Part shown: positions 32,407 through 52,429 of the stretch, piece after piece
Layout: each line of letters opens with the position of its first letter
Numbering within the stretch: the first letter of the stretch is position 1
Assembly: GCA_024694365.1 (NCBI GenBank)
Contig: JAILJX010000124.1
Location: 49-64,048, forward strand
DNA from: Kiritimatiellia bacterium
GTDB taxonomy: Bacteria; Verrucomicrobiota; Kiritimatiellia; RFP12; UBA1067
Direction of reading: 5' to 3'
DNA: 64,000 nucleotides
Notes under the pieces: model-generated
The model's database searches: none
Told to the model about the DNA's origin: nothing
The model's input: only the letters and a program-made list of their open reading frames with translations
Position numbers and translations under genes: made by a program

Positions 32407-32447
32407 TATCTCGCCACGGGCCGCTCGTTGCGTCGCAGGGCGGAATA

Positions 32448-32456: not shown

Positions 32457-32465
32457 ACGCCCCCT

Positions 32466-33806: not shown

Positions 33807-33807
33807 T

Positions 33808-36118: not shown

Positions 36119-36245
36119 TAATCCCGCTTTGCTCTTTCATGTCATTTCCGTTATGTATAATCTCGACCGTAACATCCAAAGGGATGCGACGGGTTGAAAT
36201 CCGGCGTCCGCCAAATCCAAACGAAAAACGAAAGGTGTGCATGAC

Positions 36246-38312
36246 ATGAAAAAACCGATTGCCGCATTTGCGCTCGCGGCGGCCTTCGCCGCGAATGCGG
36301 GAGACGTTCCGTCTCTCGCAGACTATCCGACGACAAACATCGTGCTGTCCGCCGGCTCGTACACCGCTGCATCGCCGGGGGTCAACTTCGTGCTCTCCGG
36401 TGCGATTTCCGGGGACGTGTCGATTTCCGCGGCGGACGGATGCTGCGTGACTCTGGGAGAAGGGCTGTCGATGTCGGGAACGCTCTCCATAGACGGCGAC
36501 GCGGCCGTGTGGGCGGACGGCGGCGCGATCTCCGCAGATGGCGCCAGCGCGGTTTCCGCCACGGGAGAGATTGTCCTTTGCGGAGACGGCACTGCGACGT
36601 ATTCCGGAGGCGCCGCCAAGACGGGGGTTCTTTCCGCCGGCTCCGTCGTGGTCGCTTCGGGCTTCCATGACGTAAACATGACTTTCACCGAAAAGAAGAA
36701 CGGCTACGGGGTGTACGTGGGTTCGTCCTATCTCCAGAGAGGCGGAAAGCTCTCCATCGCATCTTCCTGCACCGAATACAAGGATATCGGCGTGACCGGC
36801 CCGAAAAAGTCCGTGTTCAGTCTGGAGGGCGGAGTGCTGTCCATAGACATGAAGGGACCGAAGTCGTGCGGAGTCAACATGGACAAGGACAGCTGCACGA
36901 CGTCCATCTCCGGCGGGCAGCTCCTCCTTTCCATGTCGGGCGCCGCAGCGAAGGGCGTGAAGTCCGACGGACCCTTCGTGATGACGGGCGGCGTCCTCGA
37001 CGCGACCGTATCGGGCGACGTTCTGATCGAGGCCTACGAGGGCGAGGATGACGCCGGCGACACGCTGTATTACACCTGCTCGGTAAGCTCGTCCTCGATC
37101 GTCAAGGCCGGGACGTATCTCGTGCAGGATTCCTCCAAGCCTTACGCCGTGAAGTGCGGCTCGGTCGACATCTCGGGCGGAACCGTCCGCATCTCCGCCT
37201 CCGGCGTAGCGGGACGCGGAATCGGCGCCGACGGCGATCTCTCCGTCTCGGGCGGCTATGTCGACATAAACGTCTCCGGCGGCGTGTCGGGATATCTCGT
37301 CGCTTTCGAAGACGACAACTGCGTCACCTCCTGCCTCGACCGCGTGGCCGCCTGCTGCATCAAGCAGGGCAGCGCGGACGGACTCGCCTCCTTCACCGGC
37401 GGCACTGTATACCTTTCGGCGACGGGCGCCTCCGGCAAATGCATCAGCGTCGACGGAACTCTCGCCATCGGCACTGACGGATCTTCCGTCTCTCCGTCCG
37501 ACTCGTCTTTTTCGCCCGACATCCAGTGCACGACATCCGGCGCCAAGACCTATGTCGCCGCGCAGAAGCTCAAGTACTACCTCAATCTTGGTACGGTATC
37601 TTCGACCGCCGACGACCCCTCGTCCTCCGTCACGACGGTATCCTCTTCGCATGTCGTCTCGGGAAGCGGGGACAATGTCGACTATTCCAACCCCAAATGC
37701 GTCAAGGCCGAGACCGGCGTCGAGATGCACTCCGGACGTCTGAGGCTCCATTCCGAATGCGATGGCGGCGAGGGATTCGAGTCCAAGGGCGATATGCTCA
37801 TATCGGGCGGAATTCTCGAAGGCGTCTGCTGTGACGATGTGATAAACGCCGGCGGCGACCTCTCCATCACGGGCGGCTGGCTCTATTGCGGATCTACCGG
37901 GAACGACGCCATCGACTCCAACGGAGCGATTTCCATATCCGGCGGCACTGTTCTCGCGTTCACCGCGACCAATCCCGAAACGGGAATAGATCTCGACGAT
38001 GCGGGCAAGTTCAAGCTTACCGGCGGAATCATCCTCTCGTGCGGCTCCGCTACGAACATGGCCGTTGGTCCGAAGAGCTCTTCGACGACCCAGAAATACT
38101 ATCTCGCAACTTCCGCTTCCGCGTCCACCTACGCAGGGAAATACCTGAAAATCGCAGGGACTTCGACATATGTGAAAGTCCCGTCGATGGAGAGTCCGTC
38201 CGGCTCCATCTCCCTGCTCGTCTCGGCGCCGGGCTGTTCTGCGTCCGCGCCGACGGCGACATCGTCCCCGTCAGGCACATCCGCCGGTTTTCATGGCGTC
38301 TACACAAAGTGA
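36246..38312 (+). CDS. Secreted parallel beta-helix protein, Cthe_2159-like carbohydrate-binding family (tentative)
   Basis: 688 aa from MKKPIAAFALAAAFAANA. Repeated ISGG.V.(A/S).G coils and a GNDAIDSNGAISISGGTVLAF motif, which I recall as typical of PF14262-type proteins. A TATAAT box sits at 36156-36161 upstream. Confidence 0.5.
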   Translation: MKKPIAAFALAAAFAANAGDVPSLADYPTTNIVLSAGSYTAASPGVNFVLSGAISGDVSISAADGCCVTLGEGLSMSGTLSIDGDAAVWADGGAISADGASAVSATGEIVLCGDGTATYSGGAAKTGVLSAGSVVVASGFHDVNMTFTEKKNGYGVYVGSSYLQRGGKLSIASSCTEYKDIGVTGPKKSVFSLEGGVLSIDMKGPKSCGVNMDKDSCTTSISGGQLLLSMSGAAAKGVKSDGPFVMTGGVLDATVSGDVLIEAYEGEDDAGDTLYYTCSVSSSSIVKAGTYLVQDSSKPYAVKCGSVDISGGTVRISASGVAGRGIGADGDLSVSGGYVDINVSGGVSGYLVAFEDDNCVTSCLDRVAACCIKQGSADGLASFTGGTVYLSATGASGKCISVDGTLAIGTDGSSVSPSDSSFSPDIQCTTSGAKTYVAAQKLKYYLNLGTVSSTADDPSSSVTTVSSSHVVSGSGDNVDYSNPKCVKAETGVEMHSGRLRLHSECDGGEGFESKGDMLISGGILEGVCCDDVINAGGDLSITGGWLYCGSTGNDAIDSNGAISISGGTVLAFTATNPETGIDLDDAGKFKLTGGIILSCGSATNMAVGPKSSSTTQKYYLATSASASTYAGKYLKIAGTSTYVKVPSMESPSGSISLLVSAPGCSASAPTATSSPSGTSAGFHGVYTK

Positions 38313-38325
38313 AAGGAGCATTGAG

Positions 38326-39762
38326 ATGAAAAAGATTTCCGTTTTCTGCATAGCGTCAGCATTGTCCGTCTCCGCCTTCGCCGCCGGACCGGGCGGTTTT
38401 GGAGGGGGCTCCTCCGGGGGCTTTGGCGGAGATTCCAGCATGGGCGGCATGGGCGATATGGGCGGCATGGGCGGTTCTTCCGGCTCGTTCGTCTACGACA
38501 CTTTCATAACCGAAGCCGAAACGAGCGGGAATGCGATAATCCGCGACGGCGTATGGTGCGGCGTGACCGATGGCGCGACATCCGTTACGCTTCCGGCATC
38601 TGTCGTTTCCGCCGTCGAAGGAGTCGCCGCATCGTCGGTCGATCTCGTCACGGCCGATCTTTCCGCGGCTACATCCCTGTCGACGCTTCCCGCGTATGCG
38701 TTTCTGGGCTGCACGTCTCTCGAGTCGGTGACTCTCGCATCGTCTGCAACGGCGGATTCAACGGCGTTCGACCTTTGTGCATTGCTCGGGACGGATGGTG
38801 CATCCTCCTCGGGCGGCGGTTCTTCTTCTTCCTCAGGCGGCTCTTCGTCTTCCTCCTCCGGCGATTCGGCGTCCGGCGATGCTTCTTCGGGCGATGGCGA
38901 AGACTCTTCTTCGGACGGTTCGTCGGCTGTCGATACGTCTTCGGACGATGCTTCTTCGGATGATACATCTTCGGACGATCCCGACTATGGCGCATGGACC
39001 GAAACGGCGAAGACAAAGCTCTATGGAGCCGTGTATGACGCCGATGGCGATGTGGTCGGCGTAACGCAGGTGAACATGAGCAAGGTCAACGTCAAGAAAT
39101 CCACTCTGCGCATAACAGGCAATGTCGTTCTGCGCACAGGAAAGAAACATCTGTTCAAGTCCGTGACCGTGACTGTTCCCGATGACTCATGCATCGAAAC
39201 GGATGTCACCGTGCGCAATCTGGGGACTCTTCGCCTGAAGGTCGGGGACGGCGGTTTCGGCGGCACGATAGATTCCCTCTACACCATCGAGGAGAAGTCT
39301 GTCGGCGGCGCATGGACATCCAACGGTGAGGTAGATGTCGATTTCAGCGACACGACCGGCCTTCCCGAGTCGGATTGGGATCTTTCCGCGCTGCTGCCCG
39401 ATGGTGAGGCGGTTTACCCGACCGGCGCCGGGAAGTGGTCGTTCGACAGCGCCGCGAGCGTGAAATGGACCAAGATCAAGGGCACGGAGGAGACGGTTCT
39501 TGTCGTCGACGAGGAGTCCGGCAAGGGGCTCGTCATAGATACGAAGGGCGGACTAAAGCCAAACATCCCCGCGATGCGGCTTTACTACACGCCCAAAACC
39601 GGAATTTTCCGCGGAACTTTCAAGGTTTTCGCCGTCCTCAACGGACGCCTCAAGCGTTACACCGTACGTGTCAACGGCGTTGTCGTCGAGGGCGAGGGAA
39701 CCGGCGTCGCGGTTTTGTCCAAAACCGGCGGATCCTGGCCTGTGACAGTGACAGTGCAATAG
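38326..39762 (+). CDS. Secreted low-complexity protein: Gly/Met-rich N-region, one BspA-type LRR-like segment, Ser/Asp-rich linker, beta-rich C-domain
   Basis: 478 aa from MKKISVFCIASALSVSAFA (SD AAAGGAG). Contains GGFGGGSSGGFGGDSSMGGMGDMGGMGG and SSSGGGSSSSSGGSSSSSSGDSASGD...SSDDTSSDD. C-terminal ~260 aa are ordered. Confidence 0.5.
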   Translation: MKKISVFCIASALSVSAFAAGPGGFGGGSSGGFGGDSSMGGMGDMGGMGGSSGSFVYDTFITEAETSGNAIIRDGVWCGVTDGATSVTLPASVVSAVEGVAASSVDLVTADLSAATSLSTLPAYAFLGCTSLESVTLASSATADSTAFDLCALLGTDGASSSGGGSSSSSGGSSSSSSGDSASGDASSGDGEDSSSDGSSAVDTSSDDASSDDTSSDDPDYGAWTETAKTKLYGAVYDADGDVVGVTQVNMSKVNVKKSTLRITGNVVLRTGKKHLFKSVTVTVPDDSCIETDVTVRNLGTLRLKVGDGGFGGTIDSLYTIEEKSVGGAWTSNGEVDVDFSDTTGLPESDWDLSALLPDGEAVYPTGAGKWSFDSAASVKWTKIKGTEETVLVVDEESGKGLVIDTKGGLKPNIPAMRLYYTPKTGIFRGTFKVFAVLNGRLKRYTVRVNGVVVEGEGTGVAVLSKTGGSWPVTVTVQ

Positions 39763-39899: not shown

Positions 39900-39908
39900 T
39901 GATATAAT
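39900..39908 (+). promoter_or_regulatory. Extended -10 box TGATATAAT upstream of the giant gene
   Basis: TGATATAAT at 39900-39908, about 90 nt upstream of ATG 40007. Confidence 0.45.
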
Positions 39909-40006
39909 AGGGGACGGAGTCGGCGCAAGCTTTCGGCGCGGCAGGATCAACCGGTCCAAGCCGTGTCGAGCGAGAAGGAATTTTAAATAGTCAGAAGCAC
40001 AAACAG

Positions 40007-43000
40007 ATGAGAATGAATCTGCCCAAATGCGTTTTGGGGGTTGCTGCGTGCTCGGTTGCACTGTCGGCAAGGTTGCTTTACGCCAATTGCGCCGTAAAGG
40101 AACTTCCCGGCTACGCAGGGGCGACCCTTGCCGATAACACAATATACAAGGTGTCGGCCGACATGTCGATCGCATCGATGACGGCCGGGCAAAGCGCCGT
40201 CAACATCGCAGAGAACGCCGCAGTCGTGCTGGAAATCGCCGAAGGCGCGACTTTGACGGTCAAGGGCTGCGACGGAAGTTCATATCATGGCGGCGGCGCC
40301 GGAATCAGCGTTCCTTCGTCCTCCAGGCTTTTTGTCACAGGTAAAGGGTCGCTCATTGCCGAGGGCGGCGCGGCCGGCGCCGGCTCTAACGGCTCTGCGG
40401 GCGGGAACGCCTCGCTCGACAAGGATCACAAAGACGAAGGATGGAGCGTTTCCGGCGTGGGCGGCGCTGGCGGCGCGGGCGGAGGCGGTGCGGGAGCCGG
40501 GATAGGGACTGCGGGCGGCGCTGGCGGCGCAGGCGGCGCGGGCGGCGATAGCGTTTCGAGGCAGACTTACTGGTCTGCGCACAGGGCCTCGGGGAACGCT
40601 GGAGCGGGCGGAGGCGCCGGCTCCGATTCCGCTGCGATGGGCTCGGTCTATGTGCTCGGGAGCGTGACGGTCGCGGCGACTTCTGGCGGATCTGGCAGCT
40701 CTGGCGGGACGGGCGGCAAGAGCGGCTCCAGCGCAAACGATGCAGGCTCGGGATGGGCCAACAACTATACCGTCGGCGGCGGAGGCGGAGGCGGTGGAGG
40801 CGGCTCCGGCGACCTCCCTTCGTACGGAATCGGCTCGGGCGGACCTGGTGGCGGCGGAGGCGGTGGAGGCGGCTCCGGCGCCATCGCCGTACATGACGGC
40901 AATGACAACAGCTGGGCCGTAGGCTGGGGTCAGGGCGGCGCGGGCGGCTTAGGAGCCGTATCGGGCGGCGCGGGCGGTTCGGGCGGCGATCGCGAGGTAG
41001 TGTGCTACAACGCAGGCCAAACGGTGTATGGAGGCTTCGGCGGCTCGGGCTCGTGGGACGGTTCGCGCGGGGACGACGGTTCGCTCTACGCCGATTCGAC
41101 GGCGAGCGTGACCTCGAGCAATTCGAGGGAGCCGGCTTCTTTCTCGGGCATTTCGTCGGCGTTTCACACTGTTTCCGTGATGTTCGATTCATGCCAGGAT
41201 GGCATGCCTGACGAAACGGTCGTCATGGGCTTCGCCGAAAAGATGCCCGTCGCGCCTGTGCGCAGGAAGTTCGGCCTCGCGTTTCTCGGCTGGTGGACCA
41301 CGCCTTCGGGCGAAGGGGAGTGCATCTGCACGGCCGACGGGACTTGGAAATACGCAGCTTCGCCCTGGACGGAGGGCTTGACGCTCTACGCGAGGTGGGC
41401 GCAGCTCGGTTTGACCGTCAACGGCGAGCCCGTCGCAAACCTCGCGGGCAGCGGGTGGCGCTTCGATTCCGTGGCGAACGTCGTCCGTCTGACCGGCTCC
41501 GACAACGTCATTTCGGGAACGGGCGAGGGGATCGGGATTGCTGTCGCGGCCGACTGCAGAGTCGTCGCGAGCAACCTCATTGTTACGGCTTCCGTGGACG
41601 TAGCGCCTTTCGATTGCGGGGCGTGCGAAGTGGAGCTCTTGCTCGCGGGGACGAACGTTTTCGCGAACACTTCAACCGACGCGGCTTCGAGCGCGCCGGG
41701 AATCCGCGTTGAGGCGGGCGCTAGGCTCGTCATCGGCGCCGCGGGGGCGGGGGCTGCGAAGGTGTCGGGCGGAGCGGGGTCGGCCGGAATCGGCGGCGCC
41801 CCGGGGAAGGATTGCGGCGAGATCGAGATAACCGGCGGAACGCTTGATGTTGCCGGCGAGTATGGAGCCATCGGCCAAACCGATATCGGTGCGGGTGAAG
41901 GCGCCTCGGGAGGCAAGGTTATCATAACCGGCGGAAGCTGCAATATGGGCAGCATGATGGCGAATCCCGCCCTCTCCAACGCAACCGAGGTTGTCGGGTG
42001 CGTCATAATGGAGAATCTCGCGCCGGGCGCGAGCATCAGGCTCGTCGGACTCGGCGACTACGGCGACGAGGGGATTTTGGCCGATCCCTCCGGGAACGTG
42101 TACATCTGGCTTCCGTACGGCTACCGCCGCTTCGGCTATGAAGATGCGGAAGGCCTCCACCCCCTCGAGGCGACGGCAGGCGCCGCTCCCTCCGTCGCCG
42201 CGGCGGGGACCATGGTCGGCGTCGAGGTCGACGGACTCGATATCGCGTTCGGCAAGGGCGAGGGGTGGAGACGCTCCGAGAGCACAATTTTCATCGACGG
42301 GACGAAAGAGTGCGCGGTGTCGGGCCTTGCGACGAACATATCTCTCCAGGCGGTGGCCGACTGCACTGTCGTCGCCTCCAACCTGACGCTCGTGGCCGAG
42401 AGCCAAATCGTGCCGTTCGAGTGCTTCGGCAAGTCGGTGGTCCTCAAGCTCGCGGGGACGAATGCGTTCGAAAGTCTGGCTGCCGAGGGGGACAACTACA
42501 TGAGCCGCCCGGGCCTGCATGTCGCGAACGGGGCGAAGCTCACGATAACGAACGCGGCCGATTCCGCGCGGCTCTACGCGGCGGGCGCGCACAATTCGCC
42601 GGGGATAGGCGCGTCATTCGGCAACGATGCCGGCCGGATCGAAATATGCGGCGGAGACATCGAGGCCAAGGCCGGCACGAACTCCCCCGGGATAGGATTC
42701 GGGAACCCTATGCCCGGGGATGAGGTCGACATATCCATAACGGGCGGCAGGGTGCATGCGCATGGTGCGGCCGGATATCCCGGCATAGGGGGGAATGACG
42801 GCGGTGCGATCGCCGTTTCCGGTGGAGTCGTAACGTCGATCGGCGGATCGAGCGCTTCCGGGCTCGGCGCAAGCTATAACGGCCATATCGACTCGATTTC
42901 GATAAGCGGCGGAACGGTGTTCGCCAAGGGGAGCAGCAGCACCTGCGACATATTGCTCGGGCCCGGCGCCACGGGCGCCACGAGGGTGACTGGCGGAAGC

Positions 43001-46000
43001 GTGCTCCCCATGAACGGAAGAATGGACCCTGCGTTCTCCAACGCGACGGAGAGGGTGTGGCACGTGACGGTCGAAGGCTTCGCCGCCGATACCGCCGTCA
43101 AGGCGTATGCTTCCTGCGGCTACGGCACGAAGGACATGACGACCGACGGTGACGGCAAGCTCCACTTCTGGCTCCCCGACGGAAGGCATGCCCTCGGCGT
43201 GGTCGACGCGGAAGGCGAGCATCCTTTCACCGTCACGGTCGACGGGGCCGACGCGACGGCCCAAAGCTCGAAGCTCAGGGGAATCGCGATCGACGGCGTC
43301 AACATCGCCCTCGGCGGCGGCGAGGGGTGGAGTTACGTCTACGACACCACTTACGGCGAGTCTTACGGCCAATGGGTGGCCATGCTCGACGGGACGAAGG
43401 ATTGCGTCATATCGGGAAGCGACAAGGACGTCTGCATCAAGGCCGGAGCCGACGCTTCGGCGACAGTGTCCAACCTCCGGATCGAGACGGACTCGTCGGC
43501 GACCTTCCCGCCCGTATGCTGCAACGGCCATAAGCTCAAGCTGACGCTCGCGGGCGACGCTCTCCTCTCCGGAAAGGGGAAGAGCGGAACGCCGGGAATC
43601 CGCGTAAAGGGCGACGGCTCTTCGCTGGTCATCGACGGCGCGGGCGGCGTCCTCACGGCGGAGGGTGGCTCTTTCGCGCCGGGCATCGGAGGCGACTCGG
43701 TGAATCCGGCGTCCGGGACGATCGAGATAATCGGCGGAACGGTCGTCGCGGGCGGACCCTACATCGCGATCGGCAACGGCTCGTCCGCGACGGGGGTGGG
43801 GACGACCATAATACGCGGCGGAAGCGTGTTTCGCAAGAGCGGCGAAATGAATCCTGCGGTGAAGGCGGCGGGTGGGCTCGTAAACGCCTGCTGCGTCACC
43901 GTCACCAACCTGACGCCTAACGCCGCGATCGAAGTGACGGGCCTCGGGACTTACGGGAAGAAGGGGATAAAGTCGGACGCAAACGGCAGCATATACCTGT
44001 GGCTTCCGGACGGAAGCTTCAATTTCGGCGTGATCGACGGCGGAGTCCAGCTTCCCTTGCAGGCGACGGTGGATGGCGCCGATACTTACGCGACATCTTC
44101 GCATCTCTACGGGCTTTACGTCGACGGCGTCGACATCGGGATGGGCGGAGGCGACGGCTGGCGGTTTGCCGCCGTGGGGAGCAGCACGAACGTCTTTTTC
44201 GACGGTACGGCCAAGTGCACCGTTTCTGGCTCGGGTAGAGGCATCGCTCTCACGGCCGAGGCCGACGCGACGATCACGATCGACTCTCTTGCGCTCACGA
44301 ATAACTTAGCCCCCGCAATCGACTGCGCGGGCCATTCGCTCTCGCTCGTCCTCGCGGGCACCAACACTATAACGGGCAAGGGCGACTACCCCGCCGTAAG
44401 GTGCGTCGAAGGCTCGTCGCTCGGCATATCCCGGGCGGATGGGGCAGAGGGCGTACTCTACGCCGAGAGCGACGGATGGGGCGCGGCCGGGATAGGCGGC
44501 GGATATGCGCGCGATCCGTTCGAAGCGAGCGGTGCGATAACCGTCTTCTCCGGCACGATCGTCGCGACCGGCAGTTTCGGCGGAGCCGGAATAGGCGGCG
44601 GCTACAATGGGGCGGGCTATGTGACTGTCGCAGGCGGCGTCGTGACTGCGACGGGCGGCGCATGGTCCGCGGGAATCGGCGGCGGAGCCTACACCAACGG
44701 AAATGTGAGCATATCCGGGGGGACGGTGGTCGCGAAGGGCGATTACATCGGCACGTCCAGCGGCAGCTCGGACATTGGCGGCACACTGTCGTGCGTAGGA
44801 TGCAACACCGTTACGGGCGGAAGCGTGAAGCTTGCGACGGGTTTCGCGTCGCCCGCACTCTCCAACGCGACCGAGCGGGTGTGGTGCGTGACGGTCGAAG
44901 GGCTCGCGGCGAACGCCGCAACGACCGTCATCGGCCTCGCCTCGTACGGCGCCGCCGATCTGCGGACCGACGATGAGGGCAAGCTCTACCTCTGGCTCCC
45001 CGACGGGAAGTACCGCTTCGCGACCGGCGACGGCGAGAGCGAAATCCCCTGGTACGCGAACGTCGACGGCGCCGATACGCTCGCCGTTGACGGGCGGCGC
45101 GGAATCACGATAAACGGCCGCAATGTGGGGCTGGCCTACGGCGAGGGGTGGTCGGCCGACGCGGACATCGAAAATATCACCCTCACCGGCGAGGTGGATT
45201 ATATCATATCCGGAACCGACACCAACATGTCCTTCGCCGTTGCGGCCGACTCGACCGTCGCCCTCTCCAACCTTACAGTCAACTGCAGGGGGAGGACCGT
45301 GTTCGATTGCGGTTCGTCCAAGGTCGCCATGACCCTTTTCGGCACCAACGGCCTTTACAACATCTACGATAACGATCGCATCTGCGCGCCCGGAATCAGG
45401 GTGCCGTCGGGGGCGGTGCTGACCATCGGCGAGTGTGACGGCGTCCTCAATACGCAGGGCGCGAGGGGTTCGGCGGGAATCGGAAGCGGCCACAATGAAT
45501 CTTGCGGCACGGTGAGGATAACGGGCGGCACGGTAAAATCCACCGGCGGATACTATGGCGCCGGAATCGGCTGCGGCGATTCCGCCGTCAACTCCGCCGT
45601 GATAGCGATATCGGGCGGAAAGGTTGAAGCGATCGGCGGAGATTATGCGGCCGGGATAGGCGCGGGGGAAGCCTGCACCGGGAACGGACTTGCCATAGCG
45701 ATAACGGGAGGCGACGTGTATGCCAGGGGCTGCGATCATGCCGCAGGGATAGGCGGCGGCTCGCATGTGACCATCACGAGCCCCAACGTCCACTGCGGAA
45801 CGGTCACGATATCGGGCGGCAATGTCAAGGCGGACGGAGGGCAAGACGCCGCGGGAATCGGCGGCGGCTCCATCGGGTCCGCCACGGTTGTCATTTCGGG
45901 CGGGACAATCGAGGCGGAGAGTTTTGAGTACGGCGGCGGAGCAGGCATAGGCGGCGGCAAGAGCGGCGATGGCGCCGTTGTCCAGATTTCGGGCGGAAGG

Positions 46001-47866
46001 ATCAAGGCTGCGGGCGGCGGCTACTCGGGGGGCGCGGGCATAGGCTCGGGCGCGAACGGCTCGAATGCGATGGTGTCGATTTCGGGCGGAATAGTCGAGG
46101 CGGCCGGCGCGGGAGCCGGCGCGGGAATCGGCGCCGGCGCTTTCGCTTCGGGAGGGACCGTATCGATAGTCGGCGGGACGGTATCGGCGTCGGGGAGCCC
46201 CGACGCGGGCGGCACCGGCATGAAGAACTTCATCACGGGCGGCAGCATGTTCCTCGCCGCGACCAATGCGGTGCCCGCGATGACCAACTTGACGAGGCGC
46301 GCGTGGCATTCTCCCCTCCCGGGCTTCAATCCGAACGCCGCGATTTCATTCCGCCGCATCGACGCCCCCGACTACGGGACGAACGGCATATACTCCGACG
46401 CGAACGGAACGATTCACCTTTGGCTTCCCGAGACGAACAAAGTGCAGTGGGTGATCGCGAGCGACGGCGAAAACGAGATCGCATACGGCTTCAACGTGAC
46501 GACCAACGGGTCGGAGAAGGTCGACCCCGTGGGGCTGACGGTCAACGGCTGCACCATAGTCGGCGATGCGAGCGAAACCGGGACGGGATGGACTTTCGAC
46601 GCGGCTTCGACCAACCTCATAGTCACCGGCAGCGGCAACGAAATCGGAACTCAGCGCGGATATGTCGCTACGAACATATGCATCACGGTCAAGGACGATG
46701 CGGCCGAAGTCGTCTTCCGCGACCTGAGGGCCGTCGGCAGGGGAACCGTCAGCACGGGCCGTTCGCCCGTCATAATCTCGAACGAATGCGTCATTGCCAT
46801 CGGGGGGACGAACCACGTGGCGGGCTGGGGCAGGAACGCAGCGGCCATCGAAGTCGTTTCGCCCGCGGCGCTGACGCTTGAAGGTGACGGAGCGCTCCTC
46901 GCCGAAGGTGGCAACTACGGCGCGGGGATAGGCTCGGCCGGCGGCTTGAAGTATACGGCCGGCAAGATAACGATCGAAGGCGGCGACATAACCGCGATAG
47001 GCGGCAAGAACGCCTGCGGGGTCGGCGGCGGACAGGCCTCCGCTTTCGAGGGTCTCACGGTGAACGGCGGACGCCTCCGCGCGAAGGGGGACGGACAGTC
47101 CACGGCCATAGGCTACGGGGCGCAGAACAAGGGCACTCCGGCGTTGGATATGATAACCGTCACGGACGGCACGGTAGAGCTGGAAATGGGCGGTTTCGCC
47201 AGGTACGACTGGTTCTTCAGCGGCTCCACGGTTCCGGACATAACGGAGGGCACCGGGGCCAGGGTCTCGGGCGGAAGCATCGTTCTGGGGAACAACGAGT
47301 CCTTGCTGATGACGCCGAACCCGTCGCCGAAAGGCGGCGATGGCAATACCGTCGTCCCGGTCTGGTTCACGAATCTTACAGCAAACGCGAAAATACCGGT
47401 AATTTGCGATGACTACGGCTCGGACAGCATATATGCCGACAAGTACGGACGCATCTGCCTCTGGCTGCCTGCAACCGCAGAGGCCGTCGATTACACCATA
47501 AGCGTCGACGGTAAAGTGTATGTCGCGACGGTGAGGCTCGACAACATATCCCAGACGGCGTCCGGAGCTTCCGTGTCGACGATGTCGCTCACGGGCAGCG
47601 AGCCCGAGATGTTCGCACTTATGGGAATATCGTTCGGGGCGGACACTGTGACGCTGGACATCGCCTCCGAGCCTGAGGCGTGGACCATGTACAACGCGGG
47701 CCGCTTCAGGGTGAGGGGCGCGGGCAGCCTTCCGTTCAAGGGGACGTCCGACGAGCTCGTCGAACCGGAGACCGTCGTCGTCAAGGACAATGGCGACGGC
47801 ACTTTTTCCGTGACGGTCCCGCGCGAAGAAAATGTCAATTTCTATAGGGTCGAGGCCTCAGACTGA
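40007..47866 (+). CDS. Giant (2,619 aa) modular beta-helical surface protein / putative adhesin
   Basis: Single uninterrupted ORF. Sec or lipoprotein-like N-terminus MRMNLPKCVLGVAACS. Gly-rich region, then one Listeria-Bacteroides (InlB-B type) repeat FLGWWTTPSGEG...YARW. Six modules are rich in GAGIGGG coils. No recognised C-terminal anchor. Confidence 0.8.
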   Translation: MRMNLPKCVLGVAACSVALSARLLYANCAVKELPGYAGATLADNTIYKVSADMSIASMTAGQSAVNIAENAAVVLEIAEGATLTVKGCDGSSYHGGGAGISVPSSSRLFVTGKGSLIAEGGAAGAGSNGSAGGNASLDKDHKDEGWSVSGVGGAGGAGGGGAGAGIGTAGGAGGAGGAGGDSVSRQTYWSAHRASGNAGAGGGAGSDSAAMGSVYVLGSVTVAATSGGSGSSGGTGGKSGSSANDAGSGWANNYTVGGGGGGGGGGSGDLPSYGIGSGGPGGGGGGGGGSGAIAVHDGNDNSWAVGWGQGGAGGLGAVSGGAGGSGGDREVVCYNAGQTVYGGFGGSGSWDGSRGDDGSLYADSTASVTSSNSREPASFSGISSAFHTVSVMFDSCQDGMPDETVVMGFAEKMPVAPVRRKFGLAFLGWWTTPSGEGECICTADGTWKYAASPWTEGLTLYARWAQLGLTVNGEPVANLAGSGWRFDSVANVVRLTGSDNVISGTGEGIGIAVAADCRVVASNLIVTASVDVAPFDCGACEVELLLAGTNVFANTSTDAASSAPGIRVEAGARLVIGAAGAGAAKVSGGAGSAGIGGAPGKDCGEIEITGGTLDVAGEYGAIGQTDIGAGEGASGGKVIITGGSCNMGSMMANPALSNATEVVGCVIMENLAPGASIRLVGLGDYGDEGILADPSGNVYIWLPYGYRRFGYEDAEGLHPLEATAGAAPSVAAAGTMVGVEVDGLDIAFGKGEGWRRSESTIFIDGTKECAVSGLATNISLQAVADCTVVASNLTLVAESQIVPFECFGKSVVLKLAGTNAFESLAAEGDNYMSRPGLHVANGAKLTITNAADSARLYAAGAHNSPGIGASFGNDAGRIEICGGDIEAKAGTNSPGIGFGNPMPGDEVDISITGGRVHAHGAAGYPGIGGNDGGAIAVSGGVVTSIGGSSASGLGASYNGHIDSISISGGTVFAKGSSSTCDILLGPGATGATRVTGGSVLPMNGRMDPAFSNATERVWHVTVEGFAADTAVKAYASCGYGTKDMTTDGDGKLHFWLPDGRHALGVVDAEGEHPFTVTVDGADATAQSSKLRGIAIDGVNIALGGGEGWSYVYDTTYGESYGQWVAMLDGTKDCVISGSDKDVCIKAGADASATVSNLRIETDSSATFPPVCCNGHKLKLTLAGDALLSGKGKSGTPGIRVKGDGSSLVIDGAGGVLTAEGGSFAPGIGGDSVNPASGTIEIIGGTVVAGGPYIAIGNGSSATGVGTTIIRGGSVFRKSGEMNPAVKAAGGLVNACCVTVTNLTPNAAIEVTGLGTYGKKGIKSDANGSIYLWLPDGSFNFGVIDGGVQLPLQATVDGADTYATSSHLYGLYVDGVDIGMGGGDGWRFAAVGSSTNVFFDGTAKCTVSGSGRGIALTAEADATITIDSLALTNNLAPAIDCAGHSLSLVLAGTNTITGKGDYPAVRCVEGSSLGISRADGAEGVLYAESDGWGAAGIGGGYARDPFEASGAITVFSGTIVATGSFGGAGIGGGYNGAGYVTVAGGVVTATGGAWSAGIGGGAYTNGNVSISGGTVVAKGDYIGTSSGSSDIGGTLSCVGCNTVTGGSVKLATGFASPALSNATERVWCVTVEGLAANAATTVIGLASYGAADLRTDDEGKLYLWLPDGKYRFATGDGESEIPWYANVDGADTLAVDGRRGITINGRNVGLAYGEGWSADADIENITLTGEVDYIISGTDTNMSFAVAADSTVALSNLTVNCRGRTVFDCGSSKVAMTLFGTNGLYNIYDNDRICAPGIRVPSGAVLTIGECDGVLNTQGARGSAGIGSGHNESCGTVRITGGTVKSTGGYYGAGIGCGDSAVNSAVIAISGGKVEAIGGDYAAGIGAGEACTGNGLAIAITGGDVYARGCDHAAGIGGGSHVTITSPNVHCGTVTISGGNVKADGGQDAAGIGGGSIGSATVVISGGTIEAESFEYGGGAGIGGGKSGDGAVVQISGGRIKAAGGGYSGGAGIGSGANGSNAMVSISGGIVEAAGAGAGAGIGAGAFASGGTVSIVGGTVSASGSPDAGGTGMKNFITGGSMFLAATNAVPAMTNLTRRAWHSPLPGFNPNAAISFRRIDAPDYGTNGIYSDANGTIHLWLPETNKVQWVIASDGENEIAYGFNVTTNGSEKVDPVGLTVNGCTIVGDASETGTGWTFDAASTNLIVTGSGNEIGTQRGYVATNICITVKDDAAEVVFRDLRAVGRGTVSTGRSPVIISNECVIAIGGTNHVAGWGRNAAAIEVVSPAALTLEGDGALLAEGGNYGAGIGSAGGLKYTAGKITIEGGDITAIGGKNACGVGGGQASAFEGLTVNGGRLRAKGDGQSTAIGYGAQNKGTPALDMITVTDGTVELEMGGFARYDWFFSGSTVPDITEGTGARVSGGSIVLGNNESLLMTPNPSPKGGDGNTVVPVWFTNLTANAKIPVICDDYGSDSIYADKYGRICLWLPATAEAVDYTISVDGKVYVATVRLDNISQTASGASVSTMSLTGSEPEMFALMGISFGADTVTLDIASEPEAWTMYNAGRFRVRGAGSLPFKGTSDELVEPETVVVKDNGDGTFSVTVPREENVNFYRVEASD
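40361..41085 (+). repeat. In-frame Gly-rich low-complexity coding region with short exact direct DNA repeats
   Basis: Runs such as GGGGGGGGGGSG and GGPGGGGGGGGGSG. The 25-nt string GGAGGCGGTGGAGGCGGCTCCGGCG occurs at both 40787-40811 and 40856-40880. Confidence 0.75.
41411..47535 (+). repeat. Six tandem, diverged, length-variable protein modules inside the giant ORF
   Basis: Modules start near 41411, 42221, 43283, 44114, 45104 and 46535 (270, 354, 277, 330, 477 and ~333 aa). Each reads ..(V/I)xG....G(E/D)GW.. / LAGTN / PGIRV / n x [I(S/T)GG.V.A.GG..AGIGGG] / SNATE(R)VW.VTVEGL / Y(L/F)WLP. Confidence 0.75.
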
Positions 47867-47875
47867 CTCAAAATG

Positions 47876-47884
47876 TGATATAAT
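47876..47884 (+). promoter_or_regulatory. Extended -10 box TGATATAAT: candidate promoter of the T3SS operon
   Basis: TGATATAAT at 47876-47884 starts 10 nt after the giant-gene stop and ends 16 nt before ATG 47901. No SD in between, so the leader is short. Confidence 0.5.
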
Positions 47885-47900
47885 ATAGCAAATCCAAAGA

Positions 47901-48305
47901 ATGCAAATTAACCTCCTAGCGCGATTGGCAGAGGCTATCGGGTATCCAGACAAGGTGCCCGATGACGTTTTGTCGTTTGTTTTCCGCATCGACGGCGCTG
48001 AGATAAAGGCGTTCTCGTCAGGAGAGTCCGTAAGGTTGGTTTGCGAAATTGACGCCGGCGAGGACGACTTGCCCGCGTTGGCCGACTGGGCCGTCGGGAG
48101 GATGCTGAGGGAAGAGGCGACGCTTGCGGCCGCGCCGTCGGGTAAGCCTTTTCTCTGGCAGGAGGCGTCCGCGAAGGCGGACGGTCCGTCGTTGAGAAGA
48201 TTCTTCGAGAAGTTCCTCGATTCGTGCGACTGGTGGCGGGCGCGTGCGGAAGAGAAGGAATCTGGGGGCGCGCCGCGATTCCCCAGCGTGATGATAAGGC
48301 CATGA
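47901..48305 (+). CDS. Class I T3SS chaperone, YscB-like
   Basis: 134 aa, small and acidic. N-terminus MQINLLARLAEAIG... and fold pattern fit CesT/SycE/YscB-type chaperones. Sits directly upstream of sctC, as yscB does in Ysc-type loci. Confidence 0.6.
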   Translation: MQINLLARLAEAIGYPDKVPDDVLSFVFRIDGAEIKAFSSGESVRLVCEIDAGEDDLPALADWAVGRMLREEATLAAAPSGKPFLWQEASAKADGPSLRRFFEKFLDSCDWWRARAEEKESGGAPRFPSVMIRP

Positions 48306-48314: not shown

Positions 48315-50252
48315 ATGATCAAAAAGCTGATTATGGCGGTTGCGATGGCTTTTGCGGCGCTTGCTGGCGCCGCCGGAGACATCCCGTGGAAGCTGCCTGC
48401 TTACACGCTCGTGGCGCGGAACATGGATCTGCGCGTCGCGCTCAACGCTTTCGCCGTCGCCGAGGGGCTTTCGATAGTGATATCCGATTCCGTCACGGGT
48501 CAGTTCTCGGGTGAATTCAAGGATGTCCCCGCCGGCGAATTCCTGGAAAAGCTGGCGACGGTCCACAATTTCACCTGGTACTACGATGGCGCGGCTCTCT
48601 ATCTGTACTCGGCCGGCGAGATACGCACGCTTCTTCTTGATCTCAAGTACATGAAGGCCGGCGAGGTCCGCACGATGCTCCGCGAGCTTGGGGTGGAGGA
48701 CGCCCGCTTCCCCATCAGGACGACGTCCAACGACGAGCTGATTCTCATATCCGGTCCGCCGCGCTATGTGGCAATCGTGGCCGAGACCATCGCCAAGGCC
48801 GACAATCTCAGGGAGGCGCGCTCGTTCAACGAGATAGAGGTCAAGATATTCCCCTTGAAGCATACCTGGGCCGACACCGTGAGCTTCAGCGTCAGCAGCC
48901 CCGAGTCGACCGTCGCCATAAAGGGGATCGCGCAGATTCTCGACGAGATAATGAACCACGATGCGACGCTGTCCGCGTCGGTGGAATCCATAGCGAAGGA
49001 CGGCGCCGACAAGGCCGACAAGCCGAAGGCCGAGAAGCCCGAGAACGGCCCGGTCAACTCTTTCCGCCCGGTGATACGCGCGGAAAACAGGCTCAACGCC
49101 GTCATAGTCAGGGACGTCAAGTCTCGCCTTCCCATGTACGGGGAGCTCATACGCCAGCTCGACGTTCCGCAGAAGCTGGTGGAGATAACGGTCACGGTCG
49201 TGGAGCTGAGCCAGAACGACGCGCTCGATTGGCAGCTCTCGCTTGCGCTGCAGTCCGCCCACGGCCATTCCGACTTCGGCGCAGGGCAGAACGCCGTGAA
49301 CATCTTCGAGCCTGCGGAACTCGCCGGAATGGGCTTCGCCGGCGCCTTGACCCACATCCACTCAAGCTACCGCCTCGGCGCCTCGCTTACGGCCCTGAGG
49401 CAGAAGGGCAAGGCGAGAAACATCTCGCGCACGACGCTTCTTACGGTGAACAATCTCGCCGCGAGGATGAGCGATTCGCAAAGCTACCATGCGCGCGTCG
49501 TCGGCACCGAGGTCGCGACGCTCGAGGAGGTCACCGCCGGCACCGATCTCGTGATCAAGCCGCGCATCATACCCTCCGGGATCACCAACGTGCCCGACCG
49601 CGTATGGCTCTCTATGGAGCTTGACGACGGCGGCTTCGAGACCGTGACGGTCGACTCCATGCCGATGACGAGAACCTCCACCCTCCAGACGCAGACCGCC
49701 GTCTTCGAGAACGACTCGATAATGCTCGCGGGCTATCTGAGGGATGTCGAGCATGATGCCGGATGGGGGATCCCTTATCTCAGGGACATCCCCTGGATCG
49801 GCTGGCTGTTCGGCGGCTCGTCCGTGAGCAAGGAGACCGTGCAGAGGATGTTCATCTTCACCCCCCACATCGTCGACATCGACGCGGAGAATCTCGCCCG
49901 CAGCCAGGCGGCGAGGCTGAGGGATGTCGTGGAGGCGGAGATGATGCAGGACGATGCCGCGGAGTCCGACGGGGAGCGCCGCCTGCGCAAGCTCGAGCGC
50001 GATGCGGAGTCCGACCGCCGCAGCGAGAAGGCCGACGACAGGTACCGCCGGCGCGAGGCCGAACTGGAGCATGCCGGGGCCGTGCGCAAGGTCGAGCGCG
50101 AGCGCGAGAGGGACAGGCTTGACGACGACATCCGCGGATGGGAGATACTCGAGGAGATGGAGGCCGACGAGCTCGCGCTCGAGCGGTCCAGGCGGGAGGC
50201 GCGGATGCGCTCCGCGGAAAATCCGGCGGACGGCGCGGAGGAAGGCGACTGA
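48315..50252 (+). CDS. sctC: T3SS outer-membrane secretin SctC (YscC/InvG family) with long charged C-terminal tail
   Basis: 645 aa. Signal peptide. N-domain YTLVARNMDLRVALNAFAVAEGLSIV / NFTWYYDGAALYLY. Secretin core NRLNAVIVRD..., RNISRTTLLTVNN..., IPYLRDIPWIGWLFGG...MFIFTPHIV. Confidence 0.9.
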   Translation: MIKKLIMAVAMAFAALAGAAGDIPWKLPAYTLVARNMDLRVALNAFAVAEGLSIVISDSVTGQFSGEFKDVPAGEFLEKLATVHNFTWYYDGAALYLYSAGEIRTLLLDLKYMKAGEVRTMLRELGVEDARFPIRTTSNDELILISGPPRYVAIVAETIAKADNLREARSFNEIEVKIFPLKHTWADTVSFSVSSPESTVAIKGIAQILDEIMNHDATLSASVESIAKDGADKADKPKAEKPENGPVNSFRPVIRAENRLNAVIVRDVKSRLPMYGELIRQLDVPQKLVEITVTVVELSQNDALDWQLSLALQSAHGHSDFGAGQNAVNIFEPAELAGMGFAGALTHIHSSYRLGASLTALRQKGKARNISRTTLLTVNNLAARMSDSQSYHARVVGTEVATLEEVTAGTDLVIKPRIIPSGITNVPDRVWLSMELDDGGFETVTVDSMPMTRTSTLQTQTAVFENDSIMLAGYLRDVEHDAGWGIPYLRDIPWIGWLFGGSSVSKETVQRMFIFTPHIVDIDAENLARSQAARLRDVVEAEMMQDDAAESDGERRLRKLERDAESDRRSEKADDRYRRREAELEHAGAVRKVERERERDRLDDDIRGWEILEEMEADELALERSRREARMRSAENPADGAEEGD

Positions 50253-50253: not shown

Positions 50254-50871
50254 ATGGCAGAGGCGGCGAAAATCGAGAACGGCTTCGCTGAAGTCGGACC
50301 GGGTGAGTGGCTCATGGGCCGCTCGCAGCCGGCGGCTTCGTTCGAAGAGGCCGTCCGCCGCCGCCGCACCGGATGGCGCGTTCCCGACAGGTGCGCGCTC
50401 GATCTCGTCGCGACTTCGGGCAACGCCTACTGCTCCGATGCGCTGAAGCCTTTTCTTACGTTTCTGCCGTGCGCGGCCCCCATATCGGCCGTTTCCGCGA
50501 AGGTGCTCGTCGCTCCCGCCAGTGCGCGCACCGGCGCCTCTTTCGTGAGGGCCGTGCCTATGAGCGTGCGCGGCGGGGTGACCGTGACTGAGTTCGGTTC
50601 GGAATGGATCGTCCTCGCGACAAAGAGCCGCGTCAGGCGCATTGTCGTGGAGGACGGCGCGACGCTGTCCGCGAGGCCGGAGTCTGTCGTGGCGTGGAAG
50701 GGCCCGAGGCCCACGGGATTCTGTCCGAAACTCCGGCTTATGGACATCCTCCTGCCGAGGGGTCCTAGGAACCTCATTTTCCATTTCCACGGCCCGTCCG
50801 TCGTTTGGGTAGAAGGGTCTGTCGACAGGCGCGAGCTGCCCGTCATGAACCGCGGAAGGAGGGTCGCCTGA
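50254..50871 (+). CDS. Hypothetical T3SS-embedded protein (205 aa), possibly AIM24/DUF124-like beta-sandwich
   Basis: ATG lies 1 nt after the sctC stop, and its stop overlaps the sctW start (TGATG). No signal peptide or TM. The C-terminal ...VVAWKGPRP...LIFHFHGPSVVWVEGS resembles AIM24-family endings (weak recall-based call). Confidence 0.45.
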   Translation: MAEAAKIENGFAEVGPGEWLMGRSQPAASFEEAVRRRRTGWRVPDRCALDLVATSGNAYCSDALKPFLTFLPCAAPISAVSAKVLVAPASARTGASFVRAVPMSVRGGVTVTEFGSEWIVLATKSRVRRIVVEDGATLSARPESVVAWKGPRPTGFCPKLRLMDILLPRGPRNLIFHFHGPSVVWVEGSVDRRELPVMNRGRRVA

Positions 50872-52052: not shown

Positions 52053-52429
52053 TACCTGAATGGATATCGGCCCCCATACGCGAATTCGGCCGCGCCGCCG
52101 GATTGGACGGCTTCGCCCTGAACGGGCGCGGCGTCGCCTCGGTGTCGTTCGAAACTGGCTCGACGCTATCCTTCGAGTTTGCCGACGATTCGCTTTCGAT
52201 TGTCATGACCGTCCCCGCCGGAGGCGATCCCGCCACTGCGAGAGGCATTCTCTGCGAGGCGAATCCGGATGCGAGGCGCGCTTTCCGCGTGCGCGCGGGC
52301 CGGCGCGAAAAGACCGGCCGCGCCGTGTTCGCGGAGCGTCTGGCGGCGCGCGACGTGACGACGCCGGCCATAAGCGCCGCATTTTCCGATCTTTGGCGCA
52401 TAACATCAGAATACGGAGGAGCAAGATGA
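52049..52429 (+). CDS. Class I T3SS chaperone, SycN-like
   Basis: 126 aa. ATGA overlap with the sctW stop. N-terminus MIPEWISAPIREFGRAAGL... and size and position (immediately after the gatekeeper) match SycN/Pcr2. Confidence 0.6.
   Translation: MIPEWISAPIREFGRAAGLDGFALNGRGVASVSFETGSTLSFEFADDSLSIVMTVPAGGDPATARGILCEANPDARRAFRVRAGRREKTGRAVFAERLAARDVTTPAISAAFSDLWRITSEYGGAR

Follow-up and report, generated by a model that had tools for sequence, protein, structure and literature searches.

The gene at positions 40007-47866 (+) of the window (the whole 64,000-nucleotide stretch of Kiritimatiellia DNA analysed here) encodes a giant modular protein of 2,619 aa. It is a credible candidate for a Sec-exported surface fibre that serves as adhesin partner of the injectisome (T3SS) whose operon follows it; judging from sequence and its context, we put the odds of this reading at about even. 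The giant defines a new protein family (head, Flg_new segment, n modules, CTD) laid out as signal peptide, Gly-rich head, one weak Listeria-Bacteroides repeat, beta-helix/Ig stalk and C-terminal domain (CTD), with both conserved ends lacking known relatives. As far as our searches reach, the family is confined to rumen and gut Kiritimatiellae-type bacteria and was previously uncharacterised.

Reading frame and domain layout of the giant

The first-pass annotation reported one 2,619-aa reading frame, and we find exactly that: a single intact ORF with an ATG start, whose coordinates take in the stop codon. The chance of 2,619 codons without a stop is by our own calculation about 1e-33, given about 0.029 stops per random codon at the local base composition. 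The GC3 of the giant (0.78) is similar to that of the adjoining genes, and GC is 0.58-0.66 over the whole window and 0.62-0.66 within the giant; the GC profile shows no composition anomaly marking an island in the window. A full-length database search found no close orthologue, the top match having 30% identity over 47% of the query. Among the loci described below, L020 is the only one showing a split giant ORF.

The N-terminus, MRMNLPKCVLGVAACSVALSARLLYA, is the sole strongly hydrophobic stretch of the protein. This peak, together with the signal-peptidase-I type peptides of the relatives, places a Sec signal peptide at aa 1-26 (40007-40084, +), and cleavage of the window copy probably occurs after LYA. 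A relaxed lipobox (VAAC) at aa 12-15 might be used instead in the window copy, and the N-terminus had been described as Sec or lipoprotein-like. The Sec half of that description stands. The lipoprotein half appears unlikely at the family level, because all relatives have a signal-peptidase-I type peptide that ends in AxA, with G(F/L)T after the cleavage site and no Cys.

The signal peptide also bears on whether the protein might itself be secreted by the T3SS as a giant effector. It does adjoin a CesT-like chaperone gene, and some relatives lie beside effector/chaperone pairs. T3SS substrates are, however, without classical Sec signal peptides, and a predicted hydrophobic Sec peptide with an AxA-type site is found in the window copy and in every relative examined; the CesT-like gene, for its part, takes the yscB position of the secretin operon. 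Because all relatives have Sec signal peptides, we regard an effector role as extremely improbable.

The Gly-rich N-terminal head (aa 27-370, about 345 aa; 40085-41116, +) was delimited by alignment, composition and an AlphaFold model. A Gly-rich region had been noted here from the start, and its residues 90-370 are indeed 36% Gly, with invariant Gly columns in the family alignment. There follows a Listeria-Bacteroides repeat-like segment of the Flg_new / InlB-B type (41117-41386, +), placed by a weak Pfam match and the family alignment. One InlB-B repeat had been called here earlier; the GWxT...TLYAxW motif is conserved in family alignment A7, with precomputed PF09479 matches in relatives P0001, P0003, P0004 and P0006, but the match of the window protein itself falls short of the cut-off (E=0.041, 14.5 bits versus 27).

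Six tandem modules occupy 41387-47554 (+), as had been proposed from their GAGIGGG-type coils and as the module alignment, Pfam and the structure model now support. Their bounds (all +) are 41387-42196 (aa 461-730), 42197-43258 (aa 731-1084), 43259-44089 (aa 1085-1361), 44090-45079 (aa 1362-1691), 45080-46519 (aa 1692-2171) and 46520-47554 (aa 2172-2516). Each opens with a small beta unit (GxGW), continues as a beta-helix in which GAGIGGG coils number from 1 to about 9, and closes with a beta-sandwich whose end reads WLP; the coil number varies from module to module, and identity to module 4 is 31-46%. Module 5 belongs to Pfam Beta_helix_3 (PF18889), a family of repeated 20-residue coils, scoring 82.4 bits over 7 stretches (cut-off 27), while the whole giant scores 23.9 bits, under that cut-off. 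Relatives have between 1 and 27 HMM stretches of the module in each protein, a span that takes in fragments.

The beta-helix is common among lyases, and the giant is both Gly-rich and very large, points that favour an enzyme or toxin secreted with a beta-helix fold, such as a polysaccharide lyase or a MARTX/RTX-like protein. We nevertheless find this very unlikely. Pfam and NCBIfam gave no lyase, RTX or toxin-domain match, GGxGxD motifs number only three, and the Sec signal peptide does not fit a T1SS substrate; moreover, what the family conserves is the Gly-rich head and the CTD, and no catalytic module.

The protein closes with the CTD (47555-47863, +; 103 aa, ending NFYRVEASD), a predicted beta-sandwich delimited by the model and an HMM search. 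The first-pass annotation recognised no LPXTG, autotransporter barrel or PEP-CTERM anchor in it, and motif, Pfam and NCBIfam scans agree, with no match to these, to a C-terminal TM or to the T9SS CTD; NCBIfam had no match anywhere on the giant. More broadly, Pfam, NCBIfam and PDB fold and sequence searches identified neither an adhesin domain nor an anchor nor a signal for export across the outer membrane.

Conserved ends and fold predictions

The head is the best-conserved part of the family, at 37-41% identity across relatives. Its AlphaFold model (m871428aee567; mean pLDDT 73.6) had no match in the PDB (best E 5.3) and weak matches in BFVD to phage tail-fibre, Gp38 and Gly-rich proteins (E 5.9e-5 to 1.7e-2). 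The model of a module with the CTD (m77c408675fdb) has a beta-helix at pLDDT of about 90 followed by beta-sandwiches, the CTD forming a beta-sandwich of about 85 aa; against the PDB it found nothing better than E 0.13, in generic Ig-like matches only. The structural models are moderate in confidence and their TM-scores to any known fold are <=0.25. A PDB sequence search with the module profile gave no meaningful match, and neither the head nor the CTD has a relative in Pfam, NCBIfam or PDB.

An exhaustive HMM search with the CTD found 97 matches in a set of 1.84 billion representatives, every one at the very C-terminal end, and the module is present in 41 of the 44 matches of at least 300 aa. 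By this measure the CTD is nearly exclusive to the giant family. These 97 proteins, nearly all of them giants of this family, rule out the CTD as a general sorting tag. A word-index search with the CTD gave C-terminal fragments only.

The restriction of the CTD essentially to this T3SS-linked family, and the phage tail-fibre and Gp38 proteins that are the nearest structural neighbours of the head, would fit a giant that is an appendage of the injectisome itself, with the CTD docking onto the secretin or the needle/filament and a phage-like Gly-rich head targeting the machine like a tail fibre. The gene also often lies between four needle-like small-protein genes and the secretin operon. Yet the likeness in structure is weak (TM <=0.25), the needle resemblance of the small proteins is slight (E 0.016) and their profile has no PDB match, and the majority of T3SS loci are without a giant. 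We consider an appendage unlikely; were the giant one, injection specificity, for rumen ciliates for example, would be set by a fast-evolving, swappable fibre gene kept in the T3SS cluster.

The downstream injectisome operon and the window neighbours

The spacer between the giant stop and the next ATG (47901) is 34 nt, as first annotated, and the T3SS operon that begins there is real. Its first gene (47901-48305, +; 134 aa) had been called a class I chaperone. Its size and its yscB position upstream of sctC agree with this, and CesT (PF05932) aligns with 8 of 12 orthologues from end to end, but none of these matches reaches the cut-off (best E 2.9e-4; E 0.015 for the window protein), and neither the protein nor its profile has a PDB sequence match. 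We therefore refer to it as a CesT-like candidate, compatible with a class I chaperone at the yscB position.

The rest of the operon (all +) runs as follows. The SctC secretin (48315-50252) is followed by a conserved gene product of about 190-205 aa encoded between sctC and sctW (50254-50820; 63% identity to the L008 homologue, no Pfam match), the SctW gatekeeper with HrpJ and TyeA fused (50871-52052), sycN-like and yscX-like genes that overlap in different frames (52055-52426 and 52426-52812; together 52055-52812), and SctV (FHIPEP; 52812-54926). The remainder (54923-61026) holds SctD (54923-56104), a small protein (56092-56334), the SctF needle (56481-56729), an HrpB1/YscG-like gene (56729-57097), SctI (57094-57489), SctJ (57497-58105), SctK (58438-59088), SctL (about 58701-59696) and the SctN ATPase (59698-61026). 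No translocon operon was found in the window by tblastn. Elsewhere the window carries a T2SS / type-IV-pilus-like cluster (13611-24474, +) with two T2SSE ATPases, T2SSF, a secretin and pseudopilins. The window neighbours of the giant include the CAZyme genes GH2 and sulfatase.

The box TGATATAATA follows the giant stop by 9 nt and precedes the next ATG by 15 nt (47876-47885, +), close to where the first-pass annotation had seen a T3SS promoter box. The position is right, but the name is not. The window has 10 copies of the box where 0.22 are expected. All stand ahead of genes, and these genes are unrelated; one copy (39900-39909, +), 97 nt upstream of the giant ATG, is the giant's own promoter. 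It is the general extended -10 motif of this genome (TGnTATAAT), and a T3SS-specific box is ruled out. The same box stands 7-113 nt after the giant stop in the SctC-anchored loci of 12 relatives. Within the window, separate generic promoters serve the giant and the T3SS operon, which we count against the adhesin-partner reading.

Linkage of giant relatives to T3SS genes

Whether relatives also adjoin T3SS genes was a check set beforehand, and its outcome is positive, though not absolute. Among 11 database relatives looked up individually, nine are neighbours of T3SS genes (basal-body, translocon or effector/chaperone), and the relatives so placed are only 28-37% identical to the giant. A giant-anchored metagenome scan, run with an alignment of closer CTD sequences, found CesT-like and SctC genes immediately downstream in 21 of 38 family members. 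A scan anchored on SctC found a giant inside the T3SS cluster in 19 of 67 species-level loci (15 adjacent, four nearby or upstream of the translocon operon).

The arrangements differ. P0001 and P0003 immediately precede the CesT-like/SctC operon. P0008, P0010 and P0171 are flanked by the translocon operon (TPR chaperone, SseC and others) on one side and by the SctC operon on the other; in loci L008, L010 and L136 the giant is between translocon and basal-body operons. P0002 is the last gene of a translocon operon, P0206 adjoins an IpgD-type effector and a CesT chaperone, and P0228 adjoins three CesT chaperone genes and large unknown proteins. In L010 the giant is operonic, since it starts 2 nt past the upstream stop and its own stop overlaps the next start. 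In all, at least five distinct gene orders show the linkage, and because gene order varies between loci, this argues for a selected giant/T3SS linkage rather than inherited synteny.

The exceptions are equally clear. Neither side of P0004 has a T3SS gene within reach, nor does the downstream side of P0006 (its upstream side ends at the contig end). On the downstream side, the only one read in the giant-anchored scan, 15 of the 38 loci where that side is readable have only CAZyme, housekeeping or unidentified genes. No giant is within reach in 48 of the 67 species-level T3SS loci, and close sister loci differ, L008 having a giant and L015 none. On these counts the giant is an accessory rather than a core T3SS partner, not needed in cis by the T3SS. 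A general "adhesin slot" upstream of sctC is ruled out, since giant-less loci have CAZymes, housekeeping genes or the translocon operon there.

A possible objection to the adhesin-partner reading is that the giant is a surface fibre or coat for some other use (binding mucin, sulfated polysaccharide or feed particles) and has T3SS genes nearby only through sharing the same mobile or variable region. In favour of this, the SctC tree shows the giant adjacency to be patchy and labile, CAZyme genes neighbour the giant in the window (GH2, sulfatase) and at other loci (GH43, GH10, rhamnosidase), weaker relatives of the modules occur in Firmicutes InlB-B-repeat giants without a T3SS, and the giant is under its own generic promoter. 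Simple co-inheritance, however, does not predict linkage in five or more gene orders, nor does it sit well with the operonic fusion without intergenic gaps in some loci or with the lack of a composition anomaly marking an island. We hold this objection to be possible but on the unlikely side.

The giant diverges much faster than the adjoining genes. Against the L008 copy it has about 30% identity, whereas the flanking SctV, SctC and CesT-like proteins have 82%, 62% and 50%. Such fast divergence relative to neighbours is typical of exposed, diversifying proteins.

Proposed role and significance

We infer a surface location for the giant, along with its orientation, ligand binding, export route and effect on injection, in the following scheme. 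After Sec export and cleavage of the signal peptide, the giant would cross the outer membrane, for which the T2SS-like cluster at 13611-24474 may be one candidate route. One conserved end, most likely the CTD, would hold the fibre on the cell or the injectisome, and the modular stalk would project the other, the Gly-rich head. The head would bind a surface ligand of a eukaryotic target (a rumen ciliate, a fungus or host epithelium), and this binding would draw the target membrane close enough for the needle and translocon to reach it.

Kiritimatiellae-type bacteria are usually regarded as free-living polysaccharide degraders. Text searches found no literature treatment of the T3SS clusters of their rumen and gut members, which are essentially undescribed. 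The IpgD-type effector gene beside P0206 points to eukaryotic targets. As the putative adhesin partner, the giant is a candidate for how these injectisomes gain contact and host range, and may mark which rumen organisms are targeted.

Comparison with known systems

Giant or dedicated adhesins that work together with a T3SS have precedents in SiiE and in intimin, which favours the adhesin-partner reading. According to PMC12607715 and bioRxiv 10.1101/2021.05.14.443827, SiiE is a giant adhesin that cooperates with the SPI-1 T3SS and makes the intimate contact that the T3SS needs. SiiE (SPI-4, Salmonella), a non-fimbrial adhesin, is like the giant in being a very large, highly repetitive surface fibre accessory to a T3SS, properties that for the giant are predicted from sequence. 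It differs in being a T1SS substrate with BIg repeats and no Sec signal, encoded on a separate island; the giant has a Sec signal, beta-helix/Ig modules, a Gly-rich head, its own CTD and a gene within the T3SS cluster or next to it. Pfam and PDB searches found no sequence or fold relationship between the two. Nor does the giant resemble T1SS RTX/BIg adhesins of the SiiE or LapA type more generally, with three GGxGxD motifs, no BIg domain and no adjacent T1SS genes. It is also unlike two-partner secretion proteins (TpsA/FHA-like), as there is no Haemagg_act match on the head and no adjacent TpsB.

The chlamydial Pmp proteins are beta-helix adhesins of the PVC superphylum, Sec-dependent, with a passenger of Gly-containing repeats, in bacteria that have a T3SS. 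The giant shares with them the superphylum, the Gly-containing beta-helix repeats, the Sec dependence and the occurrence in T3SS-bearing bacteria. Pmp proteins differ in their GGA(I/L/V) and FxxN motifs and their C-terminal autotransporter barrel; the giant has one GGA[ILV] and two FxxN in 2,619 aa and no Chlam_PMP match.

The Firmicutes InlB B-repeat giants have a Flg_new-like repeat and PF18889 in common with the family, single modules reaching 35-49% identity over 3-10% of the query. The CTD sets the family apart from them, since it is near-exclusive to it (only 3 of the 44 CTD matches of at least 300 aa are without the module). Phage Gp38 (T4-like) and other Gly-rich tail proteins, the nearest structural neighbours of the head model, are likewise Gly-rich with conserved Gly runs, but TM is <=0.25, the rmsd is large and there is no sequence homology, in a head model of moderate confidence. 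We take the phage-tip likeness as a weak lead only.

The intimin gene (eae) lies in the LEE of EPEC/EHEC between operons, near the espA/espD/espB translocon genes. Intimin and the Yersinia adhesins invasin and YadA differ from the giant in being autotransporters of type V (Ve/Vc) that are anchored by a beta-barrel, and in having 10 to 30 times less repeat content. In the giant, Pfam searches of the segments at E up to 1 found no barrel, LysM or BIg domains, and there is no Autotransporter, Chlam_PMP, intimin or LysM match of the kind a type Va/Ve autotransporter has; no Tir-like partner was identified. What these adhesins share with the putative fibre is that they are Sec-dependent and encoded within or alongside a T3SS locus, and the position of intimin matches that of the giant in L008, L010 and L136.

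The giant protein and its modules

Positions 40007-47866 (+) of the window hold one uninterrupted ORF of 2,619 codons, with a third-position GC content (0.78) similar to that of the genes around it; the long antisense ORFs within it are shadow ORFs of a GC-rich repeat gene. The N-terminus of this giant, MRMNLPKCVLGVAACSVALSARLLYA, is the sole strongly hydrophobic stretch of the protein. Residues 90-370 are 36% glycine and are followed by a single Listeria-Bacteroides (Flg_new) repeat, which is weak in the window copy (E 0.041) although conserved across the family. Six tandem modules come next (aa 461-730, 731-1084, 1085-1361, 1362-1691, 1692-2171 and 2172-2516); they show 31-46% identity to module 4, and the main difference among them is how many GAGIGGG-type coils each contains (1 to about 9); module 5 scores 82 bits to Pfam Beta_helix_3. 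The last 103 residues contain no LPXTG, TM/PEP-CTERM, barrel or other known anchor. The first-pass annotation had described the single ORF, the Sec-like N-terminus, the Gly-rich region, the one InlB-B repeat, the six GAGIGGG modules and a C-terminal domain (CTD) without LPXTG, autotransporter barrel or PEP-CTERM, and every one of these factual elements was borne out.

The positive family memberships of the giant are at the repeat level only (Beta_helix_3, and weakly Flg_new). The defining features of autotransporters or Pmps, of intimin/invasin, of TPS exoproteins, of T1SS RTX/BIg adhesins and of tag-sorted proteins were each sought in it and not found. A search for catalytic or RTX signatures was likewise negative, so that an enzyme or toxin is a very improbable identity for the giant.

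Structural models of parts of the giant are based on alignments only 10 sequences deep. AlphaFold2, given aa 2172-2619 with 10 aligned sequences, yielded a model (mean pLDDT 73.5) in which a beta-helix at pLDDT about 90 leads into beta-sandwich units, of which the CTD is the last; Foldseek against the PDB returned only generic Ig-like matches (best E 0.13), and the module profile had no sequence relative in the PDB. The Gly-rich head (aa 27-465) was modeled as Gly-rich beta structure (pLDDT 73.6) with no PDB neighbor (best E 5.3). Its best neighbors in a viral predicted-structure library were phage tail-fibre, Gp38 receptor-recognising and "glycine-rich domain" proteins (E 5.9e-5 to 1.7e-2); because TM-scores were at most 0.25, this predicted likeness is only a lead.

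A family with conserved ends

A search with the entire protein brought up no close orthologue; its best database relatives, P0001-P0010, have 28-37% identity over 24-48% of the query and share the complete domain plan. Their signal peptides are of the signal-peptidase-I type, ending AxA|G(F/L)T. The head (~350 aa, with invariant glycine columns) is the best-conserved part of the family at 37-41% identity; the single Flg_new repeat precedes the first module, which always starts near residue 445-480, and module number is variable. Weaker matches among Firmicutes "InlB B-repeat" giants are confined to single modules or to the Flg_new repeat.

The CTD spans ~90-100 aa in the family and ends (R)F(F/Y)xVE. 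An HMM search for it, a check proposed in the first-pass annotation, was run exhaustively over 1.84 billion representative proteins and gave only 97 matches, all at the extreme C-terminus; 41 of the 44 matches of at least 300 aa also carry the module. These matches rule out a general sorting tag, and judged from them the CTD is a family-specific end domain.

Between the window and L008, a relative's locus, identity is 82% for SctV, 62% for the secretin SctC and 50% for the CesT-like protein, and about 30% for the giant in the same position. Such low identity, with widely varying module number, is what one would expect if the protein were exposed at the surface and diversifying.

The neighboring T3SS operon and other genes

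The giant's stop codon is followed by 34 nt, a 134-aa gene and then a T3SS operon reaching 61026, which encodes SctC, SctW (HrpJ+TyeA), sycN-like and yscX-like proteins, SctV, SctD, SctF, an HrpB1/YscG-like protein, SctI, SctJ, SctK, SctL and SctN; both spacing and operon had been correctly reported. The 134-aa gene had been called a class I chaperone; it does occupy the yscB position, but its match to CesT is weak. Comparison with L008 resolved a listed 250-aa ORF (52060-52812) into two genes that overlap in different frames within 52055-52812 (+), one sycN-like (52055-52426, +) and one yscX-like (52426-52812, +). An unassigned, conserved gene at 50254-50820 (+), whose ~190-205-aa product has no Pfam match, separates sctC from sctW in every relative as well (63% identity to L008).

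Counterparts of the flanking T3SS genes, with 45-82% identity, occur in metagenome-assembled genomes (MAGs) from rumen and gut labelled Kiritimatiellae, Verrucomicrobia, Lentisphaerae or Victivallales, and further window genes (GH2, sulfatase, HtrA and a T2SS/pilus-like cluster) fit the lifestyle of rumen/gut Kiritimatiellae-type MAGs. Two signal-peptide proteins of no assigned family lie 5' of the giant: one of 691 aa, beta-helix-like in appearance (36237-38312, +), and immediately next to the giant one of 489 aa with Gly/Ser/Asp-rich linkers and a weak BspA-LRR match (38293-39762, +). Neither has a counterpart in relatives' T3SS clusters.

Linkage of giant and T3SS among relatives

We examined adjacency in three independent ways: single look-ups, an SctC-anchored scan and a giant-anchored scan. 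In the look-ups, P0001 and P0003 have a CesT-like/SctC operon directly downstream. P0008, P0010 and P0171 are flanked by the SctC operon and by a translocon operon (TPR class II chaperone, SseC, a 620-816-aa protein and four paralogous small proteins of 170-218 aa). P0002 closes a translocon operon of this kind and is itself followed by housekeeping genes; one of the small proteins precedes P0005. P0206 is flanked by three small proteins plus an IpgD-family effector with CesT chaperone, and P0228 (4,840 aa), the most divergent CTD-bearing member, adjoins three CesT chaperone genes and large uncharacterised proteins. No T3SS genes lie within reach on either side of P0004, or downstream of P0006, where the upstream side ends with the contig.

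The SctC-anchored scan, with one genome per species, gave 80 loci, 67 with usable upstream sequence. A giant lies immediately upstream of the CesT-like gene in 15 of the 67, nearby in three, and upstream of the translocon operon in L052, a total of 19; the translocon operon abuts the secretin operon without a giant in about 22, and unrelated genes lie upstream in 26. Giant-bearing loci are scattered through one crown clade of the SctC tree, none lies on its deep branches, and close sisters differ. In L020 (1-7642) two overlapping ORFs (1-4167 and 4064-7642) take the place of a single giant homologue 5' of the T3SS operon, owing either to a frameshift or pseudogene in this species or to misassembly.

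Querying metagenome contigs with the last module plus CTD gave 38 loci with readable downstream sequence. CesT-like and SctC genes follow immediately in 21 of the 38, translocon genes in one, and one is of the L001 type; CAZyme, housekeeping or unidentified genes follow in 15, only the downstream side being read. Because most of these contigs end inside the gene on the upstream side, the true T3SS-linked fraction is probably underestimated.

From the look-ups and these counts (19/67 and 21/38), the linkage is frequent, persists in at least five gene orders and includes operonic fusion, yet it is not obligatory; the adjacency pointed out in the first-pass annotation is thus conserved in part. 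A possible objection is that the giant works at the cell surface, or in attachment, independently of the T3SS and only happens to reside beside it. Patchy distribution and CAZyme neighbors favor this objection, but linkage that survives rearrangement and the operon fusions speak against it, and we consider it rather unlikely.

The small proteins close the translocon operon directly before the giant, four per locus (L010 5624-7979, L008 7606-9960, L136 4015-6372) and three in L138 (869-2560). They have in common the C-terminal motif Q..M..LQ...(K/R)RD.(S/A)(Y/F)(S/D), gave one weak T3SS_needle_F match (E 0.016) and no EspA/SseB or PDB match, and may form a new family of needle-tip or filament proteins. 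Adjoining giant relatives, L138 carries an IpgD/SopB-family phosphoinositide-phosphatase effector gene with CesT chaperone (11803-14454, -) and L137 three CesT chaperone genes with large uncharacterised proteins (27139-34523); these genes suggest that the rumen T3SSs of such loci target eukaryotes.

Promoters

A "T3SS promoter box" had been assigned to TGATATAATA at 47876-47885, 9 nt past the giant stop. This reading fails: the window has 10 matches to the motif TGnTATAATA, versus 0.22 expected, and copies precede unrelated genes and the giant itself. Nine of the ten matches are at 7486-7495(-), 7531-7540(+), 10866-10875(+), 28984-28993(-), 29064-29073(+), 32397-32406(-), 32448-32457(+), 39900-39909(+), 97 nt 5' of the giant start, and 47876-47885(+); they include three divergent pairs. 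The abundance and placement indicate that the box is the organism's general extended -10 promoter. No obvious -35 element accompanies the window sites, and spacing to the ATG is often just 5-15 nt, implying leaderless or near-leaderless mRNAs.

In the window, separate predicted promoters serve the giant and the T3SS operon, and we found no convincing terminator between the two. The box follows the giant stop by 7-113 nt in 12 SctC-anchored species loci and is absent in L010, L058, L060 and L062, among others; in L010 the giant stop overlaps the start of the next gene. A one-mismatch copy, TGATATAATC, lies antisense within module 5 (45197-45206, -), probably by chance, with no ORF context in support.

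Proposed role

T3SS substrates lack hydrophobic cleavable signals, and therefore the Sec signal peptides exclude T3SS export of the giant; that it is a T3SS effector is accordingly the least credible alternative. We propose that the giant is an adhesin, a fibre on the cell surface that would be held there by one of its conserved ends. The CTD, being family-specific and not ligand-like, is favored as the fixed end. The module stalk would project the conserved Gly-rich head to a ligand on the target cell, and this contact may bring the target membrane within needle range. A candidate outer-membrane route, by proximity only, is the T2SS/type-IV-pilus-like cluster at 13611-24474 (+), with two T2SSE ATPases, T2SSF, a secretin (20173-22344) and at least four N-methyl pseudopilins. 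That the giant is instead a physical appendage of the injectisome seems improbable to us.

Text searches of the literature turned up no paper on T3SS clusters in Kiritimatiellae or on this protein family there. Adhesins partnered with a T3SS are already known as a kind; the novelty is that the giant belongs to a family not characterised before and is embedded in a T3SS cluster, in a phylum without prior injectisome study. Intimin, which lies within the LEE, would be a functional analogue of the proposed role. SiiE with SPI-1 likewise offers a functional analogue of the proposed giant-T3SS partnership (PMC12607715; bioRxiv 10.1101/2021.05.14.443827).
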